From assembly GCA_963727445.1 (NCBI GenBank), contig CAVSGI010000009.1:32001-96000 (forward strand): 64,000 bases of DNA, written 5' to 3'. This DNA is from an uncultured delta proteobacterium (GTDB lineage Bacteria > Myxococcota_A > Polyangia > Polyangiales > B10-G4). Below, piece by piece: positions 1-9,120 of this stretch (positions are counted from its first letter, which is position 1; each line of letters starts with the position of its first letter). The position numbers and the translations under genes are program-made. A model generated the notes under the pieces. The model saw only the letters and a list, made by a program, of their open reading frames with translations. It did not search any database and was not told the origin of the DNA.

Positions 1-47
1 AACCCACGACATTCAGTTTCCGACAGGTCACTCCGCTGGCGGAACAC
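1..47 (-). ncRNA. Probable 5' part of a YrlA-type Y RNA / permuted tRNA mimic, cut by the window edge
   Basis: Minus strand reads GTTCCGCCAGCGGAGTGACCTGTCGGAAACTGAATGTCGTGGGTT. It ends in a V-loop plus start of a T-arm but has no upstream D-arm or acceptor, the order expected for YrlA; lies in a tRNA array. Confidence 0.45.
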
Positions 48-124
48 GTCCACCGGATACACGACGAAGACGAAGCCCATCGTGCACGGCGACGCACCGG
101 CATGATGCCTCTTGCCAGGCGATG

Positions 125-202
125 TGGTGCAAACGGGAGGATTCGAACCTCCACTGAGCCGGGTCTGAGCCGACCGCCTCTGCCGAGTTGGGCTACGTTT
201 GC
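125..202 (-). tRNA. tRNA-Leu(CAG) with short variable region
   Basis: Acceptor GCAAACG/CGTTTGC, anticodon arm GTCGG-CTCAGAC-CCGGC, T-loop TTCGAAT, encoded CCA; V region only 5 nt. Confidence 0.9.
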
Positions 203-1498
203 GAAATTCGGATGGACGGTACCGACGCGCGATCGACGGAGCGCCGTGCGCCGGGGAGCGTCGTGAGCGCGCCGCTCTCCGGAGCGTCGAGGGCGGAGAG
301 GAGCGCGTTCAGCGCCACCATGGTCCGCATGAGGAAGGGCATGAAGTAGGGCAGCTTGAATCGCTCCATCAAGAGCTGCTTCTTCATGGTGCCGGCCGCG
401 TCCACAATCTCGCGTACGCGCTCCGAGCCGATCGCTTCGCCCCGAATCACCCCGCCGATGGCGATCCACTGCACCTCGGCGATCGCCTCGGCCGCGCGCC
501 GATTGCCGATCTCGAGCGCGGCGTCCACGGCGCGGACGAAGCGCTCGCGGTCCGACGCGAGCGCGGCATCCCGCAAGTCGCCGAACGCCTCTCGCTGAGC
601 GTCGTCGAAACGAAAGACGCTCCCGAAGTCGAGCACGCCTACCGTGCCGTCCTCCCGAAAGAAGAAGTTGCCGGCGTGGGCGTCAGCGTAGAGCACGCCG
701 TGGTCGGCCAACGCCGACAGGACGACCCGGCGCACGGCGGCGGCCTGATTTCGCCGCACGTCCGCGTCGAAGGCCCGCGCGTGATCGACGGTCACCCCGT
801 CCAGGAAGGTCGTCGACAAGACGCGGGCGCTCGAGACGTCGAGGGCGACCGCGGGGATCTCCAGATCCGGATCGCCCTCGATGAGCGCGGCGAAGGTCGC
901 CATGTTGTCGGCTTCGCGCTCGTAATCGAGCTCGGCCAGAAAGCCCGACTGGATTCGGCCGATGAAGTCGCCGCTCTGTCCGCGCGGCATGAAGAACGCG
1001 GTGGCGACCTTCCCGATCGAGCCGACGTTCTCCATGTCGTGCTCGAAGGCTTCGCGAATGCCCGGGTGCTGCACCTTCACCGCGAGGTGTCGTCCGTCGT
1101 GGTGCTCGGCGTCGTGGACCTGACCGAGCGAGGCGCTGGCAAAGGGCTGGCGGTCGAAACGCGCGAAGACCTCTTCGGGCGGTGCGCCCGAGATCCTCCT
1201 CCACGAGCGCGGCGATCGCGTCGTAAGGGGAGCGCGCCGCCTGGGCGCGGAGTCTGGCGAGGGCGGGTCCGACCTGCTGTTGGACCTCAGGGGGGAGATT
1301 CGCCTCGAGGAGGCCAGCCATCTGACCGACCTTGGTGCCGAGGCCGCGGAGCTCGCCGAGGCGATCGACCGCGCTCTCGAGGCCCTTGCCCGAGCCGGCG
1401 ACCATCGAGGCCGCCGTCCCGACGCCCGCGCGCGCCATCGAGGCGAGGCGCCCGAGACGACCGGTCTTCAGCTTCTTGGAATCCCCGCCGTCCCCCAT
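193..1498 (-). CDS. ABC1/UbiB/AarF-family atypical kinase (one frameshift near 1187)
   Basis: LRGLGTKVGQ, ASASLGQVH, AVKVQHPG, ELDYEREA, ADAHAGN, LDFG motifs split over ORFs 683..1498 and 193..1080. Confidence 0.85.
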
Positions 1499-1564
1499 GA
1501 CCGAAGGATTGTGCCAATCGGCGGCCGAGGGAAGTGGGAGCCGACGCGTCGGCTACGCCACGAT

Positions 1565-1642
1565 TGGAGCCCCTGGGGGGAATCGAACCCTCCATTTCCG
1601 GTTTGAGAGACCGGCGTCCTCACCTGATTAGACGACAGAGAC
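1565..1642 (-). tRNA. tRNA-Glu(CTC)
   Basis: Anticodon arm CCGGT-CTCTCAA-ACCGG, T-loop TTCGATT, encoded CCA. Confidence 0.9.
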
Positions 1643-1687
1643 AGGAAGCGCCACGACCCGATACTGCTGGGCAGGGCGCAGACGAAA

Positions 1688-1758
1688 CGGAGCGGTTGGG
1701 GGGAGTCGAACCCCCTTCGCGAAGATGGCCACCTCGTTACTCACCAGCGAGCAACCGC
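1688..1758 (-). tRNA. tRNA-Gly(GCC), atypical (reduced D-arm, G33, ends CCG)
   Basis: Acceptor GCGGTTG/CAACCGC, anticodon arm CGAGG-TGGCCAT-CTTCG, T arm GGGGG-TTCGACT-CCCCC. Confidence 0.75.
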
Positions 1759-1760
1759 AT

Positions 1761-1852
1761 GTGCCGGCCTGCTCAGGTGCCTAATCCGAGCTTCCGGCAG
1801 TGAGCGCGAGCTTTAGGAGGGAGCTCTCACTCACCGAAATCTGTCTGGCTGC
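1761..1852 (-). ncRNA. Unassigned structured RNA between tRNA genes
   Basis: Long hairpin GTGAGTGAGAGCT...AGCTCGCGCTCAC followed by a second hairpin GCTCGG...CTGAGC. Confidence 0.35.
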
Positions 1853-1958
1853 CGGGATGCACTCCCGGCTCCGCGCTGCTGCGCTCCCGATCCCGCTGAC
1901 GCCGCTGCGCGGCTTTCGCGGGCTCGTACGCTCCGCAGCGCTCCGCCTTCTCCTAGAC

Positions 1959-2029
1959 TGGCACGCCGCCGAGGAGTCGCACCTCGTCCCACGGGTTTGG
2001 AATCCGATCGGCTCTCCAGCCTGCGACGT
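1959..2029 (-). tRNA. tRNA-Trp(CCA), atypical (short D-arm, T-loop TGCGACT)
   Basis: Acceptor ACGTCGC/GCGGCGT, anticodon loop TTCCAAA, encoded CCA. Confidence 0.75.
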
Positions 2030-2040
2030 ATGGAGGAAGA

Positions 2041-2129
2041 CGGAGGAAGACGGAGGAATCGAACCCCACACCCAGAGGTGCGCACTGTTTTCGAGACAGG
2101 CCTGACCGCCAGAGATCAGTTCGTCTTCC
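2041..2129 (-). tRNA. tRNA-Ser(CGA) with 8/4 acceptor/T geometry
   Basis: 8-bp acceptor GGAAGACG/CGTCTTCC, 6-bp D stem CTGATC/GGTCAG, anticodon loop CTCGAAA, long V arm, 4-bp T stem. Confidence 0.85.
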
Positions 2130-2133
2130 GAGA

Positions 2134-2209
2134 TGGCGCCTTTGGCAGGACTCGAACCTGCAACCTCTCGCTCCGCAAGCGAACGCTCCTCCAGTCGAGC
2201 TGCAAAGGC
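2134..2209 (-). tRNA. tRNA-Arg(GCG)
   Basis: Acceptor GCCTTTG/CAAAGGC, anticodon arm TTCGC-TTGCGGA-GCGAG, encoded CCA. Confidence 0.9.
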
Positions 2210-2212
2210 GGA

Positions 2213-2286
2213 TGGCGCCGCGTACGGGAATCGAACCCGTCTCGCCCGGGAGACAACCGGATCGCATCCCAGATGCGCAACGCGGC
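2213..2286 (-). tRNA. tRNA-Asp(GTC)
   Basis: Acceptor GCCGCGT/ACGCGGC, anticodon loop TTGTCTC, T-loop TTCGATT, encoded CCA. Confidence 0.88.
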
Positions 2287-2337
2287 TCGGACAGTGAGTC
2301 GACCGTCTCGCCCCGTCAGAGACGAGCCGGTCGTTAC

Positions 2338-2856
2338 TCAAACCATTTCACTGTTCCAGAAGAGCCAGCTCTTCCACGTCTGCGGGACGTCGGTGAGACG
2401 CACGTGGAAAGCCTCCATGGGAAGCCAGGTCGGCTTCGTCGGACGGCTCTTCAGGACCAGGCGCGCCTCCTTCGGAGTCTTCGCGCCCTTGTCGTGGTTG
2501 CACGGACCGCAAGCGGTCACGACGTTGTCCCACGTGGTCTTGCCGCCCCGCGAGCGCGGGATGACGTGGTCCATGGTCAGCTTCTTCGCCGGCAGCGTAT
2601 CGCCGCAGTACTGGCAGGTGAACTCGTCACGCACCATCACGTTGAAGCGCGAGAAGCGGATCGCCTGCTTGCGGCGGCTGATGCGGCGCACCAGGCGCAC
2701 GACAGCCGGCATGCGGATCGTGAGGCTCACCGAGCGGATCTCCTCGTCGTACTCCTCGACGACCTCGACCTTGCCCCCGAAGAGCATGGTGACGGCCTTC
2801 TGCCAGCTGACGATGCGGTGTGGTTGGTAGCCTTGGTCCAGTACAAGTGTACGCAT
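2338..2856 (-). CDS. HNH endonuclease (McrA-like) embedded in the tRNA array
   Basis: RDEFTCQYCG, TMDHVIPRSRGG, WDNVVTACGPCNHDK; AAGGAA upstream of ATG 2856. Confidence 0.92.
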   Translation of the reverse strand: MRTLVLDQGYQPHRIVSWQKAVTMLFGGKVEVVEEYDEEIRSVSLTIRMPAVVRLVRRISRRKQAIRFSRFNVMVRDEFTCQYCGDTLPAKKLTMDHVIPRSRGGKTTWDNVVTACGPCNHDKGAKTPKEARLVLKSRPTKPTWLPMEAFHVRLTDVPQTWKSWLFWNSEMV

Positions 2857-2999
2857 GGCTGCTTCCTTACCTGCGCGACCTCGCAGAGGAGACGCGCCAT
2901 GGCTGTTGATGGATGTGGGTTTGGGTTGGTTAAGTATGGGTCCGCCGTCTGAAGACGCACGAACGGCCGAGAAAAGTCTGTGTGAATCACTTCTGGAGA

Positions 3000-3076
3000 T
3001 GGTCTGCGTAGAGGGATTTGAACCCCCGGCCTCTCGGACCCGAACCGAGCGCTCTTCCAAGCTGAGCTACACGCAG
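3000..3076 (-). tRNA. tRNA-Pro(CGG)
   Basis: Canonical cloverleaf, anticodon arm CTCGG-TTCGGGT-CCGAG, encoded CCA. Confidence 0.93.
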
Positions 3077-3094
3077 GTGTGGGAAGCTGATCCG

Positions 3095-3186
3095 GCTCGT
3101 GGGCAACCCTCCGGTCGCTGCTGCGGCTTCGTGTCGCCTGGCGGCGCCACTGCGCTTCCGCCGCGCCCTGCGGGTTGCCCCCGAGC
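3095..3186. repeat. GC-rich palindromic spacer (REP-like)
   Basis: GCTCGTGGGCAACCC ... GGGTTGCCCCCGAGC inverted arms between two tRNAs. Confidence 0.45.
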
Positions 3187-3198
3187 ACTCCCGTAGAG

Positions 3199-3272
3199 TG
3201 GTGGACACGGTGGGACTCGAACCCACGTCTCCTGCTTACATGCAGGCGCTCTCCCAGTTGAGCTACGCACCC
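3199..3272 (-). tRNA. tRNA with Ala identity (G3-U70, A73) but 6-nt anticodon loop ATGTAA
   Basis: GGGTGCG-TAGCTCAACTGGGAGAGCG-CCTGC-ATGTAA-GCAGG-AGAC-GTGGGTTCGAGTCCCAC-CGTGTCC-ACCA. Confidence 0.75.
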
Positions 3273-3346
3273 CCGCAGGCGGATGACGATCACCCGCCTG
3301 CTTCTTGCGGCATCGGCCCTGCCCGCCACGGCCCCGACCGATGCCT

Positions 3347-3360
3347 GATTGTCAAAGACT
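3347..3360 (-). promoter_or_regulatory. boxA-like antitermination element
   Basis: Minus strand AGTCTTTGACAATC resembles rRNA-leader boxA, just upstream of the first tRNA. Confidence 0.6.
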
Positions 3361-3422
3361 CCTCCGCTTCTCCGGTGAGAAGACAGACCGCCACTTCGCG
3401 CACGCGCTCGCGTGACGGAACG

Positions 3423-3454
3423 AAAAAGGCCACCGCGGAATGTCCGTGGTGGCC
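3423..3454 (-). terminator. Leader (attenuator) intrinsic terminator of the tRNA operon
   Basis: GGCCACCACGGA-CAT-TCCGCGGTGGCC-TTTTT. Confidence 0.8.
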
Positions 3455-3477
3455 CCGGGTGCAGCTCTCCCCGAGAG

Positions 3478-3573
3478 CTACGTGAGGGTGCCCCTCCACG
3501 GACGAAGCAGGGCATCGCAACCGCGACCGAAAGGTCGCGCCAGATGAGATTCATTGCTCGTCCAGTACTTCAT
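3478..3573 (-). CDS. Putative leader peptide MKYWTSNESHLARPFGRGCDALLRPWRGTLT
   Basis: Hand-translated 31-aa uORF between promoter and terminator; its 3' end carries the antiterminator-complementary segment. Confidence 0.55.
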   Translation of the reverse strand: MKYWTSNESHLARPFGRGCDALLRPWRGTLT

Positions 3574-3582
3574 CGTTCCGCC

Positions 3583-3610
3583 CAGATAAGTCGCGCCTCG
3601 CGCATGTCAA
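3583..3610 (-). promoter_or_regulatory. sigma70-like promoter of the tRNA operon
   Basis: Perfect TTGACA, 16 nt spacer, imperfect -10 TATCTG. Confidence 0.5.
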
Positions 3611-3686
3611 CCGCCTTTGTCGTCTCGCGACGCCCGCCCGGTTGCTTACCGCGGGCGGCAGCGTATGGTCCGGCCACGGAGCTCCC

Positions 3687-4934
3687 TTGAAGACGATCCG
3701 AAAGCGCCGCGTGGTGATCACCGGGATCGGGATGGCGTCGCCCATCGGGCACGACCTCGACACGGTCAGCGATGCGCTGCGCCACGACCGCCACGGCATC
3801 CGCCACGTCTCCGAGTTCGAACGCATCGGCGAGCTGCAGACCCGACTCGCCGGCGTGGTCGACGACGTCGATCTCTCTCGGCGCTGGCCACGGCAGCGCA
3901 CGCGCTCGATGGGTCGCGTCGCGCTTCTCGCCGCGCACGCCACCGACGCTGCCCTCGAGGACGCCGGCATCGACGAAGAACGCCGCAGCGCGCCCGACGT
4001 CGGCCTCGCCTACGGCTCCACCCACGGCTCCTCGGTCGAGCTCGAGCGCTTCTGCCGCAAGGTGTTCGGCAACGACAGCCTCGAAGGGATCTCGTCCAGC
4101 TCCTATCTCCGGTTCATGAGCCACACCACCACCGCGAACCTCGCCGGCCTCTACGGCATTCGCGGGCGCGTCATCTCCACCTGCGCGGCCTGTGTGTCGG
4201 CGAGCCAGGCGGTCGGCGCCGGATACGAAGCCATCAGCGTCGGCGCACAGAAGGTGATGATCTGCGGCGGCTCCGAAGAGCTGCACTGGGTCCCGGCCGG
4301 CGTCTTCGACATCCTCTTCGCCACCAGTCATCGCTACAACGATCGTCCCCATCTCAGCCCGCGCCCCTTCGACGTGGCTCGCGACGGACTGGTGATCGCC
4401 GAAGGCGCCGGCACCGTCGTCCTCGAAGAGCTCGAGCACGCCAAGAAGCGCGGCGCGCACATCCATGCCGAGGTCCTGGGCTACGGTACGAACTGCGACG
4501 GCTCTCACCTCACCGCGCCGTCCGCCGAAGGCATGTCCGACGCGATGCGTCTCGCGCTACGGGACGCGGGTCTCGTAGCGAGCGACATTCAATACGTGAA
4601 CGCGCACGCGACCGCCACGCAGGTGGGCGACGTGAGCGAGAGCCACGCGACGCGGGCGGTGCTCGGCGAGAAGGTGCCGATCTCCTCGACGAAGGGATTC
4701 ACCGGCCATACACTCGGTGCCTGTGGAACGATCGAAGTCGCGCTCTGCATCGCGATGATGAGAGACGGTTTCCTCGCTCCCACGCGCAACCTCCGCGAGC
4801 TCGATCCCGAGTGTGCCTACCTCGACTACATCACCGATGAGCCGAGATACGAGACGGTCGATCGCATGATGAGCAACAACTTCGCCTTCGGCGGCATCAA
4901 CACCTCGCTGATCCTCGGCCGGTGCTCCGAATGA
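3687..4934 (+). CDS. Beta-ketoacyl-ACP synthase (FabF/aryl polyene KS type)
   Basis: RVVITGIG, catalytic Cys in AACVSASQA, NAHAT, GHTLGA, SNNFAFGG. Confidence 0.92.
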   Translation: MKTIRKRRVVITGIGMASPIGHDLDTVSDALRHDRHGIRHVSEFERIGELQTRLAGVVDDVDLSRRWPRQRTRSMGRVALLAAHATDAALEDAGIDEERRSAPDVGLAYGSTHGSSVELERFCRKVFGNDSLEGISSSSYLRFMSHTTTANLAGLYGIRGRVISTCAACVSASQAVGAGYEAISVGAQKVMICGGSEELHWVPAGVFDILFATSHRYNDRPHLSPRPFDVARDGLVIAEGAGTVVLEELEHAKKRGAHIHAEVLGYGTNCDGSHLTAPSAEGMSDAMRLALRDAGLVASDIQYVNAHATATQVGDVSESHATRAVLGEKVPISSTKGFTGHTLGACGTIEVALCIAMMRDGFLAPTRNLRELDPECAYLDYITDEPRYETVDRMMSNNFAFGGINTSLILGRCSE

Positions 4935-6172
4935 CCGAGGAGCGCCTCGACGTCGTGGTCCTCGGCGCGGGCCCCGCCGGCAGCACCTGTGCGCACCTCC
5001 TCGCGAAAGGCGGGGCGAAGGTCCGTGTGCTCGAAAAGGAGAGGTTCCCCCGCTTTCACGTGGGCGAGTCGCTTCTGCCCTGCGAGAACGCCATCTTCGA
5101 GCGGCTCGGCTTCGACATCGGGGGAGGTGATTACCTCTACAAGGCGGGCGCGGAGTTCATCGACGAGCGCACAGACGACATCGCCGACTATCCCTTCGCC
5201 GGCGGGCTCCCCGGAACGCCCTCCCACGCCTACCATGTCGAGCGCGCGCGATTCGATCACGAGCTCGCCCAGCTCGCGGCAAACGCGGGCGCCGAGATCC
5301 GTTTTGGCGTCAAGGTGCGGAACGTCGATGTTTCTGCCGACGAAGTGACCATCTCGGCCGAAGACGGGGAGCACCGCGCGCGCTTCGTGATCGACGCGAC
5401 CGGGCAGGACGCGTTCCTCGCCCGCCGCCGCAAGTCGATCCGTCCCATCAAGGACTTCGGCGTGGTGGCCGCGTTCGCACAATTTTCGGAGCTCTCACCC
5501 GAGTCGGTCGCCGAGCTGACCGAGACCGGCAACATCAAGATCCTGATCCACGACGACGGGTGGGCTTGGCTCATCCCCCTCACCGGTGGCCGCTTGAGCT
5601 TCGGCGTGGTCTCGCGCCGCGGCGGTCTGGGCACCGGCATGATCGACGCGGTGCAGTCGAAGTCGAAGCTCATCGCGCGCCTGACCCGCGGGGCGAAGCG
5701 CGCCGACCCGCAGCTCGTCCGCCACTTCGGCTACGTCAACGCCGAGCCCTACGGCGCGCGTTACGCGTGCATCGGGGATTCGGCGGCCTTCCTCGACCCC
5801 GTCTTCAGCTCCGGCATCTTCCTCGGGATGAAGAGCGCCGAGATGGCGGCGGACATTCTCGGACCCGCCCTCTCGGACGGGACCGAGGCGCGGCCGGATC
5901 TCCTCGATCCGGTGAAAGCGAAGATGCGCGAGGCCTACGTCGCCTTTGGGTCGCTGATCCGCAGCTTCTACTCGACCAATCTGGTCAAGCACTTCTTCTT
6001 CCACCCGGACCCGGAGCCCGAGCTCCGGGCGGGCCTCACCAGCATCCTCGCCGGCGACGTCTTCCGGGAAGACAACAAGTTCCAGAATTCGATCACCAAA
6101 GGCCGTCGCCTTTGGACGCCGGAATCCGTGGCCCAGGAGGAGCTCGGAGCGCGCTCGCCCCGCGGGCGTTGA
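4931..6172 (+). CDS. Flavin-dependent halogenase (carrier-protein substrate type)
   Basis: GAGPAG, FPRFHVGESL, WAWLIP (WxWxIP), GDSAAFLDPVFSSG. Confidence 0.85.
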   Translation: MTEERLDVVVLGAGPAGSTCAHLLAKGGAKVRVLEKERFPRFHVGESLLPCENAIFERLGFDIGGGDYLYKAGAEFIDERTDDIADYPFAGGLPGTPSHAYHVERARFDHELAQLAANAGAEIRFGVKVRNVDVSADEVTISAEDGEHRARFVIDATGQDAFLARRRKSIRPIKDFGVVAAFAQFSELSPESVAELTETGNIKILIHDDGWAWLIPLTGGRLSFGVVSRRGGLGTGMIDAVQSKSKLIARLTRGAKRADPQLVRHFGYVNAEPYGARYACIGDSAAFLDPVFSSGIFLGMKSAEMAADILGPALSDGTEARPDLLDPVKAKMREAYVAFGSLIRSFYSTNLVKHFFFHPDPEPELRAGLTSILAGDVFREDNKFQNSITKGRRLWTPESVAQEELGARSPRGR

Positions 6173-6233
6173 AGATTCGGGCTCGTAGGGCGGTCGTAGA
6201 CGCGTGTCTGCTTTCGGATTAACGTCACCCGCC

Positions 6234-7412
6234 ATGGCGAAGCGGCGAACGCCCCTGCCCATCACCGCCCATGCAGCGGTCAACGCCCTCGGCCGAAGCA
6301 CGGCGGAGGTGCTCGCGAACCTCGACGCGGGGAGGAGCGGCTTGCGCCCGCCCCCATTCGAGGTGCCCCTCACCACCGTCGTCGGCGCCATCCCAGGCGA
6401 GCTCGCGCCTCTGCCCTCCGAGTGGTCCGACTACGACTGCCGTCTCTCGCGCATGGCGAAGCTCGCCTACGACGAGGTCCACGCCGCGGTGGTGGCGGCG
6501 CGGGAACGCTGGGGCGCGGAGCGGGTGGCGGTGATCCTCGGCACCAGCACCGGCGGTCTCCACGCCACCGAGCGCGCGTATTTCCAGTGGCGTGACGACG
6601 GCACGGTGCCGGACGACTTCGACTTCCACCGCCAGCACGACTTCAACGGGTTGGGCGAGCTCCTCTCCAAGCTGTCCGGCATCGACGGTCCGACCTACAC
6701 GCTGAGCACCGCCTGTTCTTCGAGTGGCAAGGTGATGGCCGCGGCGTGGCGCTTGATCGAGGCGGACGTGATCGACGCGGCGCTGGTGGGCGGCGTCGAT
6801 AGCCTCTGTCGGATGACCCTTCAAGGCTTCCACGGTCTCGGCGTGCTCTCCGACACGCACTGCCGGCCCTTCAGCGCCGAGCGCAAGGGGATCAACATCG
6901 GCGAAGGGGCCGCCTTCCAACTCATCGAGCGCGAAGGCGACAGCGACGTGTGGGTCCTCGGCGTCGGCGAATCGAGCGATGCCCACCACATGAGCTCGCC
7001 CCACCCCGAAGGGCGCGGCGCGGCCGAAGCGATGAGCCGCGCGATGGCGCAGGCGGGCCTCGAGGTCGAGGACATCGATCACATCAACGCCCACGGCACC
7101 TCCACGCTGCTCAACGACAAGGCCGAGGCCATCGCCATCCACGCCCTCTTCGGCGATCGCGTTCCGGTGGTCTCCACCAAGGGATTCACCGGTCACCTCC
7201 TGGGCGCAGCCGGCGGGACCGAGGCCAGCTTCGCCATCCACGCCGTTCGGAGCAATCGCATCCCTGCGAACCTCGGCGTCGAGCCCAAGGATCCCGACGT
7301 CCACATCGACGTGCGCCCGGAGTCGCGCACGCAACGGGTGCGCCGCGTGCTCAGCAACAGCTTCGCCTTCGGCGGGAGCAACGTGAGCCTCCTGATCGGA
7401 GAGCGGCCGTGA
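6234..7412 (+). CDS. Beta-ketoacyl-ACP synthase (aryl polyene elongating KS type)
   Basis: STACSSS, GINIGEGAA, NAHGT, GHLLGAAG, SNSFAFGG. Confidence 0.92.
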   Translation: MAKRRTPLPITAHAAVNALGRSTAEVLANLDAGRSGLRPPPFEVPLTTVVGAIPGELAPLPSEWSDYDCRLSRMAKLAYDEVHAAVVAARERWGAERVAVILGTSTGGLHATERAYFQWRDDGTVPDDFDFHRQHDFNGLGELLSKLSGIDGPTYTLSTACSSSGKVMAAAWRLIEADVIDAALVGGVDSLCRMTLQGFHGLGVLSDTHCRPFSAERKGINIGEGAAFQLIEREGDSDVWVLGVGESSDAHHMSSPHPEGRGAAEAMSRAMAQAGLEVEDIDHINAHGTSTLLNDKAEAIAIHALFGDRVPVVSTKGFTGHLLGAAGGTEASFAIHAVRSNRIPANLGVEPKDPDVHIDVRPESRTQRVRRVLSNSFAFGGSNVSLLIGERP

Positions 7413-8161
7413 TCGGCGTCGACGGGATCGGGCTCTGGGCCCCGGGCTTCGCGAGCCTCGAGGCGTTTCGTGCGGGCGAGGCCGACGAGTCCGTCACCAT
7501 GCCCAGGTGCGCCGTCGCCAACGCTCGCGCCAAGCGCGGGGTGAGCCGCATCGCGCGGATGCTCGGTGAGGTCGTTCAGCAGGCGGCCGAGGACGCGGGC
7601 GCCGACCTCTCCGAGGTGCCGACCGTGTACGCGTCGGCCTGGGGTGAGATCGACATCATGATCAAGCTCCTCGACCAGATCGCGGACGGCGAGGTGGGCC
7701 TGAGCCCGCTGCGCTTCAAGCACAGCGTCCACAACTCCGCTTCGGGCCTGGTCTCCATCGCCGCCGAGAACCGCGGCTTCTCGACGGCCATCGCCGCCGG
7801 GCGCCGCACCTTCGAGCAGGGCGTCCTCGAGGCGCTGTCGCTGCTCCGATCTTCGGACGGTGAGCGGGTGATCCTCGCGGTCGCGGAAGACGAGCTGCCG
7901 ACGCCCCTCGATCGCTTCGGGCGCTACGCGCCGCTCGCCATCGGCCTCTGCTTCGCCAAGACGCCGCGCGAGGGCGCGCACGGCACGATCAGCTTCCCGA
8001 AGCGCGCGAGCGAGGTCCTTCGTCCGACGCTGCCCGACGCCTACGCGGCGAACCCCACCGCTCACGCGCTGCCCCTGCTCGATGCGCTCGCCTCGGGAGA
8101 GCCCGTGAAGGCGCTGGCGCTCTCGGCCGCCGATCGACCGTTCGCGATCGACGTCGGCTGA
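7409..8161 (+). CDS. Chain-length-factor-like KS partner
   Basis: VYASAWGE, LSPLRFKHSVHNSASG; no catalytic Cys; coupled to the KS. Confidence 0.8.
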   Translation: MIGVDGIGLWAPGFASLEAFRAGEADESVTMPRCAVANARAKRGVSRIARMLGEVVQQAAEDAGADLSEVPTVYASAWGEIDIMIKLLDQIADGEVGLSPLRFKHSVHNSASGLVSIAAENRGFSTAIAAGRRTFEQGVLEALSLLRSSDGERVILAVAEDELPTPLDRFGRYAPLAIGLCFAKTPREGAHGTISFPKRASEVLRPTLPDAYAANPTAHALPLLDALASGEPVKALALSAADRPFAIDVG

Positions 8162-8238: not shown

Positions 8239-9120
8239 ATGCACTTCGACACGGAAGCCACGCGCCGGCGGATCGACCAGGCGCTCGCGACCGCCCTGGA
8301 TCAGGGTGAGCGCCAGGCGCCGCCCAAGCTCGCCGCCGCCATCCGTCACGCGGTCTTCCCGGGCGGCTCGCGCACCCGTCCCCTGCTCTGCATCGCCGTC
8401 GCCGAAGCCAATGGCGGAGGCGACCCGGCCCTCGTCGACGCGTTCGCCGCGGCCCTCGAGCTCCTGCACTGCGCGTCGTTGGTGCACGACGATCTCCCCT
8501 GTTTCGATGACGCGCCCACGCGACGCGGAGAGCCATCGGTTCATGCGGTCCACGGCGAGGCGCTCGCGGTTCTCGCGGGCGATGCACTGATCGTCTCGGC
8601 GTTCGAGGTGCTCGGCCGCGCTTCGCAGCACGCGCCCGCGCAGCTCCCGGCGCTCCTCGCCACCCTCGCCCGCGCCGCGGGCGCCTCCGAAGGGCTGGTG
8701 GCCGGGCAGGGTTGGGAAGCGGAGGACGGCGTCGCCCTCGAGCGCTATCACCGCGCGAAGACCGGTGCGCTCTTCGTGGCGGCCGCCACGGGTGGAGCCC
8801 TTTCGGCCGGCGTGGACGCCGAGCCGTGGCAACTTGTGGGCGTGCATCTCGGCGCGGCCTATCAGGTCGCGGACGACCTCCTCGACGCGCACGCCACCGA
8901 AGAGTCCGCGGGCAAGCCCACGGGTCGTGACGCTGCGCTCGGGAGACCGAGCGCGGTGGACTCCCTCGGCACGGAGGCGGCGCTCGCTCGGCTTCGCGCG
9001 CTCGTCGCGCAGGCAGCGGACGCCGTTCCCGCGTGCGACGGTCAGCCGATGCTCCGTGACCTCGTCGAAGAGATGGCGGAGCGCTTGGTTCCCGCGAGCC
9101 TCAAGCAGAGCGCTGCCTGA
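8239..9120 (+). CDS. crtE: Geranylgeranyl diphosphate synthase (polyprenyl synthetase)
   Basis: GGSRTRP, LVHDDLPCFD..RRG, KTGALF, YQVADDLLD, GKPTGRD. Confidence 0.85.
   Translation: MHFDTEATRRRIDQALATALDQGERQAPPKLAAAIRHAVFPGGSRTRPLLCIAVAEANGGGDPALVDAFAAALELLHCASLVHDDLPCFDDAPTRRGEPSVHAVHGEALAVLAGDALIVSAFEVLGRASQHAPAQLPALLATLARAAGASEGLVAGQGWEAEDGVALERYHRAKTGALFVAAATGGALSAGVDAEPWQLVGVHLGAAYQVADDLLDAHATEESAGKPTGRDAALGRPSAVDSLGTEAALARLRALVAQAADAVPACDGQPMLRDLVEEMAERLVPASLKQSAA

Follow-up and report, generated by a model that had tools for sequence, protein, structure and literature searches.

The minus-strand region 3610-3340 of a 64,000-nt stretch of a Polyangiales genome (the window, G000:C9:32001-96000) is probably both the leader of a reduced L-type 'spare' transfer RNA (tRNA) array with an embedded HNH endonuclease gene and a ribosome-dependent (leader-peptide) transcription attenuator. 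Attenuation of this kind had been proposed in an earlier note made from the letters of this DNA, and the proposal is supported by the anatomy of the region, by a composite antiterminator, by the leader of a congener (genome G001) and by 24 related leaders. The elements named in the note, i.e. a TTGACA promoter, a 31-amino-acid upstream open reading frame (uORF), a terminator, a boxA-like motif and the first tRNA, were all found in that order when the sequence was read (Table 1). The source genome comprises 9.47 Mb in 27 contigs (69% G+C, 85.6% complete).

Leader anatomy and alternative pairings

The distance from the -35 hexamer to the uORF ATG is 31 nt, and because the ATG is located so close to this hexamer the uORF would be leaderless or nearly so. 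The terminator stem has 10 of 11 positions paired with one internal A.C mismatch and calculated energies of -21.4 to -22.5 kcal/mol; a simple terminator scan did not call it at 3454-3428. Directly behind the U-tract, CGUUCCGU forms with CGGAACGA the closing helix of the minimum-free-energy folds, and CGGAACGA lies immediately upstream of the uORF ATG and overlaps it. The whole leader was more stable than its own shuffles (z = -5.9 for 166 nt and z = -4.2 for 308 nt). No Rfam family other than tRNA-type models matched window positions 1-8000 at E<=1.

The motif GTCTTTGACAATCAGG is termed boxA-like by comparison with the Escherichia coli boxA consensus. Its 11-mer CTTTGACAATC occurs a single time in the 9.47-Mb genome; the ribosomal RNA (rRNA) leader of the same genome holds the similar sequence TCCTTGAAAAC (8 of 11 positions in common), and the counterpart in the related locus L044 is TGCTCTTTGACAATC. 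This rRNA leader (G000:C21:691180-691330) carries a TTGACG...TACACT promoter-like site and the boxA-like sequence TCCTTGAAAACTGAATC before the 16S gene.

As claimed in the earlier note, GTCCGTGGAGG (3503-3493) at the 3' end of the uORF is complementary to CCACCACGGAC (3452-3442) in the terminator 5' arm at 10 of 11 positions, with eight contiguous Watson-Crick pairs. Of 2000 dinucleotide shuffles of the uORF region, 25 contained an 8-nt stretch perfectly complementary to the 5' arm with loop of the terminator, and 10 reached the observed duplex energy of -21.5 kcal/mol; the pairing of the uORF 3' end with the terminator 5' arm exceeds chance. When the nascent RNA was folded without the terminator 3' arm, the minimum-free-energy structure was a 23-bp composite hairpin, with a local energy of -40.4 kcal/mol versus -22.5 kcal/mol for the terminator. 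This hairpin is layered into the outer helix GUCCGUGG:CCACGGAC, a middle part of GGC:GCC and CCC:GGG, and the stop-codon hairpin as its tip. Its 5' strand consists of the last eight uORF codons and the stop, and the structure as a whole (3503-3442) buries 3456-3442, i.e. the entire terminator 5' arm. The stop-codon hairpin is present in both conformers. A second small hairpin at about 3499-3482, which is part of the minimum-free-energy fold, ends just ahead of the stop codon and corresponds to the alternative hairpin described in the note.

The congener leader and the wider family

A similarity search with the window leader against 60 and then 400 other Polyangiales genomes gave G001, a member of the same genus, as the sole match; the remaining BLAST matches in both sets were to the tRNA part or were short, G+C-rich chance matches. 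The G001 locus (L013) is syntenic, divergent synthase gene included. The two species agree exactly in GGTTGACA, in GACTTATCTG and in the 31 nt between -35 and ATG, i.e. the -35 and -10 elements are kept. The uORF of G001 has 26 codons and a TAG stop in the equivalent place; the uORF body has diverged, and the spacer has diverged or was replaced. Its stop-codon hairpin (GAUCCCC/GGGGAUU) is unrelated in sequence to that of the window, and the stop codon again lies inside. The terminator is conserved with an A-U to G-C compensatory change, followed by an identical U5-CGUUCCGU and an identical boxA-like motif.

Folded from its ATG, the nascent G001 RNA forms a four-part composite hairpin as in the window (-31.0 kcal/mol), with the outer helix GUCUGCGG:CCGCGGAU in equal codon phase (CGU CUG CGG against CGU CCG UGG). 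MAFFT alignment of the two leaders placed a gap wrongly inside the antiterminator strand, and per-sequence folds were compared instead. Three of the eight outer-helix pairs differ between window and G001, and all are still paired (U-A to C-G, C-G to U.G, G-C to G.U). Since the U-A to C-G double change hits the nucleotide that forms the internal terminator-stem mismatch in both species, and is thus unpaired in the terminator, it supports the antiterminator specifically and not the terminator. Downstream of the G001 leader, a single tRNA-like remnant (27.5 bits on the transfer-messenger RNA (tmRNA) model, below the family threshold) is followed by the HNH gene, which is intact and has 84% identity to its window counterpart. 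In this genus the leader would therefore gate the HNH gene no less than tRNAs.

In each of 24 sequencing runs a small part of the stretch was present; one DNA run and three RNA libraries were compared with it as contigs. A 217-nt RNA-library contig (run X13) matches 3364-3455 with 4 differences and keeps the stop-hairpin arms AGCUCU/AGAGCU and the CTTTGAC core; since it continues as a relative's sequence on both sides, a third relative exists in the environment. RNA-library contigs also cover the HNH gene; such contigs cannot show transcript ends or levels, and the libraries may contain DNA.

By its similarity, the first tRNA-like gene pointed to two large arrays (21-23 tRNAs), in G003 and G022, and to pieces of arrays in G005. 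Both large arrays came to light through tRNA similarity alone; upstream of each lies a uORF whose stop is directly followed by a hairpin, and the 3' arm of this hairpin doubles as the 5' arm of a U-tract terminator. The family was collected by a pattern search with this element and by similarity to the terminator core. Species genomes yielded 22 loci, of which 15 were Myxococcota-type records, and in 14 of these 15 a tRNA array follows; the other seven, from other phyla, had no tRNAs and were discarded as ordinary terminators. Of the 21 metagenome loci, 10 were new members and 3 were duplicates; the remaining 8 were rejected as ordinary terminators. The sole viral-contig match to the pattern had no tRNA genes in its 600-nt flanks and was not counted as a family member. 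In total, 24 distinct leaders before Polyangiales tRNA arrays or the array HNH gene were obtained (e.g. L014:8874-8968, L015:4854-4946). They display the attenuator logic in a clearer form than the window does.

The first antiterminator base is the G of the UAG stop in 18 of the 20 main-type leaders; in one leader the start is a base later (UAA), and one has no stop there. The antiterminators are at least as stable as the terminators: energies ranged from -18.4 to -28.3 kcal/mol for the antiterminators versus -17.9 to -19.8 kcal/mol for the terminators, and in several leaders the antiterminator lies within the full-length minimum-free-energy fold. The terminator arms are almost identical among the leaders collected. 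The inner stems occur in 19 different sequences, of which 18 were better than their shuffle mean (median z = -1.8) and nine were matched by at most 25 of 500 shuffles; these values come from per-sequence folds and shuffles, used in place of a MAFFT alignment of the 20 leaders that misaligned the variable inner stems. In L018 the first tRNA lies about 15 nt behind the U-tract (15-60 nt behind the terminator in related arrays), which leaves no room for another promoter, and transcription of the array must therefore pass the terminator. No Rfam family reached the gathering score in 10 related loci.

The window resembles the family in a GGAGG near the uORF end, in U-tract-CGU, in the HNH gene (57-67% identical) and in the residual tRNA order. 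It has the start context GAACGAUGA in common with the f3 leaders, and the N-terminal pattern M-x-W-N-x-E of G001 and L021 recurs more loosely in the window as MKYWTSNE. From these likenesses we read the window leader as a shortened, diverged family member. Our confidence in the family design is higher than that in the reading of the window itself.

The uORFs of several members are unusually rich in amino-acid types. All 20 amino acids are encoded by those of L014, L018 and L021 (48 codons each), L078 (50), L033 (58) and L015 (74), and 19 types by those of L019 (48-codon form), L020, L074 and L083, compared with a mean of 14.2 types in 48-residue samples of the source genome (P(20) ~0.0015). 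Several of these amino-acid-rich leaders are mutually related and are thus not independent trials. The window uORF encodes 17 types in 31 residues (P ~0.012-0.018, two nulls from the source genome) and the G001 uORF 15 types in 26 residues (P ~0.05-0.06). Amino-acid diversity was ordinary in the uORFs of L022, L068 and L044, and the 15-codon uORFs of L023 and L058 are too short to show such an effect. In uORFs of 48-52 codons the frame has remained open through sequence divergence; the peptides lack conservation from one subfamily to another. A comparison by hand of uORF codons with array anticodons gave no special match. Near-complete amino-acid uORFs fit a sensor of general translation.

A GAGG occurs precisely 12 nt ahead of the stop in 16 of 25 leaders (0.07 expected), in differing reading frames, and 23 of the 25 stops are UAG. 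In the window the GAGG lies at -16, and G001 has GGAG instead. The spacing GAGG-N8-stop may suggest that this Shine-Dalgarno-like sequence holds the terminating ribosome on the antiterminator arm.

HNH homologues (E<=1e-30) were present in 251 of 401 Polyangiales genomes searched; this tally includes the unpublished genome G122, which, like the unpublished G396, enters tallies only and carries no claim on its sequence. Homologues with 57-67% identity lie inside or beside the arrays of L014, L016, L054, L080, L084 and L089. As a less biased sample, 20 loci (L103-L122) were fetched by the HNH protein, blind to the leader. In 11 of these 20, tRNAs are located upstream of the HNH gene, mostly as a run ending in Leu genes, and in L084, L089, L107 and L110 a leader with terminator immediately precedes the HNH gene. 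G205, the only array start in view, and the tRNA-less HNH loci of G118 and G024 share the family design, with terminator sequences that are unrelated or compensated; in G205 the last codons CCC AGG CGG UAG form the antiterminator 5' strand, as in the window. In the f7 leaders L117 and L118, a terminator-like hairpin lies 40 nt ahead of the HNH gene, and its 5' arm contains the UGA stop of a 9-codon uORF. This arrangement differs from the main design, and its regulatory logic may be opposite.

Proposed regulation, its alternatives and known systems

From the elements, their conservation and their alternative pairings we infer the following course of events for the window. Transcription would start at or beside the uORF ATG, and in the nascent RNA the last eight uORF codons (from GUCCGUGG) and the stop-codon hairpin would pair with the terminator 5' arm to give the 23-bp antiterminator. 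A ribosome translating the uORF and arriving promptly at the TAG would open or cover the 5' strand, the terminator with its U5 would form, and transcription would stop at about 3423 (OFF). If the ribosome were slowed in the uORF, by scarce charged tRNA or by its inhibition, or were never loaded, the antiterminator would stay and read-through would result (ON). Past the terminator, the boxA-like site may aid the polymerase in traversing the tRNA genes, which are not translated, and the HNH gene. The signal sensed is more likely slow translation generally than antibiotics specifically.

A number of observations weigh against this attenuator. A consensus promoter scan gave no promoters in this region and the -10 element is weak; no Shine-Dalgarno sequence was found upstream of the uORF ATG, and an open frame of 31 codons is ordinary at 69% G+C. 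In equilibrium folding the pairing probability was 1.0 for all ten terminator pairs, whether the ribosome was masked at any of six positions or at none, and with the antiterminator conformer represented by a blocked 3' arm the terminator conformer was favoured by 12.9 kcal/mol (window) and 10.0 kcal/mol (G001). The energy of the G001 antiterminator duplex is at chance level, being equalled by 992 of 2000 shuffles, and the G001 terminator arm prefers another partner when the 5' untranslated region is free. The window's own leader type consists of two sequences only, with a covariation that rests on three pairs. Main-type leaders were gathered by pattern or terminator similarity, which in part explains why their terminators are alike; five of nine HNH loci without upstream tRNAs gave no leader in the scan. 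Finally, the array is reduced and several of its tRNAs are apparently defective. In G001 the HNH gene is preceded by one tRNA-like remnant only, so that the leader may be a relic.

Since equilibrium always favours the terminator, any switch in the window can only be kinetic (co-transcriptional). The design fits a kinetic attenuator that is OFF with prompt reading of the uORF and ON with slow translation. Of the two conformations envisaged in the earlier note, the antiterminator is thus predicted for the nascent RNA but not at equilibrium. The pairing on which the note had built its switch is kept in G001, with one double compensatory and two wobble changes, but its duplex energy there is at chance level. 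What the note had called a cryptic tRNA operon does hold tRNA-like genes, but it is a reduced, partly degenerate remnant that also holds an HNH gene.

A decaying attenuator, inherited with a once-complete L-array and now without useful regulation as the array erodes in the genus, seems unlikely to us. Such decay would account for the small number of tRNA-like genes (only 8) and their aberrant features (an anticodon loop of 6 nt, a Leu gene without long arm, a Gly gene unseen by Rfam), for the ABC1-like open reading frame (ORF) split over two frames and for the G001 array that is down to one tRNA-like remnant (27.5 bits, tmRNA model). It does not account for the promoter, terminator, stop hairpin, boxA-like motif and -35-to-ATG spacing that are kept in both species despite divergence of uORF and spacer, nor for helix changes that preserve pairing, and the intact downstream HNH gene, 84% identical between the species, means that there is still something to regulate.

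We give rather little credence to the promoter, uORF and terminator being an independent small gene, encoding a peptide or a small RNA (sRNA) of ~150 nt, with the array promoter lying 3' of 3423. About 150 nt do lie between the U-tract and the first tRNA, and this spacer holds a TTGACA (3355-3350) within the boxA-like motif, but no -10-like hexamer follows this TTGACA in the window, G001 or L044, and in related arrays the terminators end 15-60 nt before the first tRNA. Attenuator-derived sRNAs are known, such as rnTrpL of Sinorhizobium (PMC7968998). In 18 of 20 leaders, however, stop codon and antiterminator stand in a fixed relation to each other, which would be needless for a free-standing gene, and the peptides lack conservation between subfamilies. 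It is still more improbable that a trans-acting factor (a protein, or uncharged tRNA as in T-boxes) sets anti-termination with the ribosome no sensor and the frame incidental: binding sites could be provided by the near-identical main-type terminator arms and by the frame-independent GAGG that 16 of 25 leaders have 12 nt ahead of the stop, but no T-box or other Rfam match was found (window 1-8000; 10 related loci), the sameness of the terminators is partly a collection artefact, with other terminators in G205, G118, G024 and the window, and the frames are open across diverged 48-52-codon uORFs, several of them with 19-20 amino-acid types.

The trp, his, leu and pheA attenuators contain runs of one regulatory codon and have biosynthetic-enzyme genes as targets. 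Like these classical attenuators (PMC1183508), the window's putative ribosome-dependent attenuator combines a short ORF near the promoter with antiterminator and terminator hairpins that exclude each other, and the position of the lead ribosome would decide between the two. It differs in its lack of a codon run, its high amino-acid diversity and its tRNA targets; furthermore, the 5' strand of the antiterminator starts at the stop or shortly ahead of it, so that finishing the uORF would mean OFF.

The nearest working analogue is the whiB7 (wblC) uORF attenuator of mycobacteria and other Actinobacteria, in which stalled uORF translation is held to cause anti-termination, with induction by many kinds of translational damage, among them amino-acid, tRNA and synthetase depletion (PMC10274678). 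Both have a uORF in the 5' leader followed by a terminator and would act as general translation sensors. The whiB7 system differs in its phylum, its transcription-factor gene target and its alanine-enriched uORF, and it has no sequence relation to the leaders described here, which precede tRNA genes and encode many amino-acid types. The uORF attenuators that sense antibiotics (bmrCD of Bacillus subtilis, PMC4191407; mef/mel, PMC4335068) are similar in that stalling in a short leader ORF relieves a terminator. They respond to particular drugs by means of stalling peptides and control efflux or protection genes, whereas no such peptide motif is evident here.

L-arrays spread by horizontal transfer and have a linked HNH gene, and the trn operon of Anabaena is induced by translational stress (PMC8421152). 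The Anabaena array, too, has supernumerary tRNA genes on the same strand and an HNH gene; it is normally silent, and the HNH gene is co-induced (PMC8421152). In Anabaena sp. PCC 7120 the operon is controlled at its promoter, where direct repeats are bound by the ribbon-helix-helix (RHH) repressor TrcR (PMC10272220). Regulation there is thus promoter repression by TrcR versus the premature termination proposed here, and the window array is much shorter. The words 'terminator', 'attenuat', 'Myxococc' and 'Deltaproteobacteria' are absent from the main text of PMC8421152.

The literature search returned no attenuator or uORF described before tRNA arrays or operons. Leader-peptide attenuation as such is known; its use before spare tRNA arrays and HNH genes, the near-complete amino-acid leaders and the stop codon within the antiterminator are new as far as the literature was searched. 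Control of horizontally acquired spare tRNA arrays is known in one case in the literature found, TrcR of Anabaena. If the present reading is true, the Polyangiales leaders are a second, mechanistically different solution, in which the array is wired to ribosome performance and failing translation is answered with more tRNA (feedback). Leader-peptide attenuation would be extended from enzyme to tRNA genes, and a natural sensor of translation capacity as well as a testable model for the function of L-arrays and HNH genes would be at hand. The 48-codon uORFs with 19-20 amino-acid types and GAGG-N8-stop are specific experimental targets.

As a tentative generalization, which we put at somewhat less than an even chance, leader-peptide attenuation may be both the ancestral and the general mode by which L-type tRNA arrays and their HNH gene are controlled in Polyangiales and perhaps beyond. 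The uORF of ~48 codons, with nearly all 20 amino acids represented, would act as a 'pan-tRNA' test track, on which any tRNA shortage or damage (e.g. by anticodon nucleases) or slow ribosomes would turn the back-up tRNAs on; the GAGG at its fixed distance of 8 nt from the stop codon would hold the terminating ribosome on the antiterminator arm, and the window would be a shortened, diverged member.

The reduced array and its surroundings

The region upstream of the array (3641-3273) is bounded by a divergent beta-ketoacyl synthase gene that starts at 3642 (+). Eight tRNA-like genes extend on the minus strand from 3272 down to 125 (~3.1 kb), broken up by the HNH gene and an ABC1-kinase-like ORF; the housekeeping tRNAs of the genome are located away from them. 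L-arrays contain 26-43 genes versus the 8 tRNA-like genes here. A reduced descendant of an L-type array is indicated by the leftover gene order (Ala-like, Pro(cgg), ... Ser, Gly(gcc), Glu(ctc)) and by the 87% identity between the first tRNA-like gene and an array tRNA-Ala(tgc) of G003. The first tRNA-like gene has an anticodon loop of 6 nt and three G.U pairs in its acceptor stem. The split of the ABC1/UbiB-type kinase-like gene over overlapping frames suggests a frameshift or a sequencing error.

Table 1. Features of the leader and of the reduced array (window coordinates).
Feature	Position	Strand	Remarks
Promoter-like region	3583..3610	-	-35 TTGACA 3610-3605; weak -10-like TTATCT/TATCTG 3589-3583
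uORF	3478..3573	-	ATG 3573, 31 codons, TAG 3480-3478, predicted peptide MKYWTSNESHLARPFGRGCDALLRPWRGTLT
Antiterminator outer helix, 5' strand GUCCGUGG	3496..3503	-	uORF codons 24-26; partner 3449-3442
Stop-codon hairpin	3461..3481	-	9 bp; TAG inside 5' strand; tip of composite antiterminator
Intrinsic terminator (predicted)	3423..3456	-	Stem GGCCACCACGG / CCGCGGTGGCC 3454-3428, loop ACAUU, U5 3427-3423
Post-terminator element CGUUCCGU	3422-3415	-	Adjoins U-tract; complementary to CGGAACGA at 3580-3573
boxA-like motif GTCTTTGACAATCAGG	3359-3344	-	3' of terminator; identical in G001
First tRNA-like gene	3272-3199	-	56.1 bits; CCA encoded
Pro(cgg)	3076-3000	-	CCA encoded
HNH endonuclease gene	2856-2338	-	PF14279 and PF01844 matches
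tRNA-Asp	2286-2213	-	CCA encoded
Arg(gcg)	2209-2134	-	CCA encoded
Ser(cga)	2129-2042	-	tRNA-Sec model only, below family threshold; 3' end CC as drawn by ARAGORN
Gly(gcc)	1758-1689	-	70 nt; no Rfam match at E<=1; 3' end CC as drawn by ARAGORN
Glu(ctc)	1642-1565	-	CCA encoded
ABC1/UbiB-type kinase-like ORF	1498-193	-	Two overlapping frames, 683-1498 and 193-1080
Leu(cag)-like	202-125	-	Without long variable arm; CCA encoded

The position of the first array gene is of a different kind in G003. Where relatives have a tRNA-Tyr, tRNA-like 5' and 3' ends are set apart by ~230 nt of additional sequence; ARAGORN made no call there, and no Rfam intron family matched at the gathering score. The corresponding positions are ~8590-8830 (-) in L014 and ~1560-1800 in L019.

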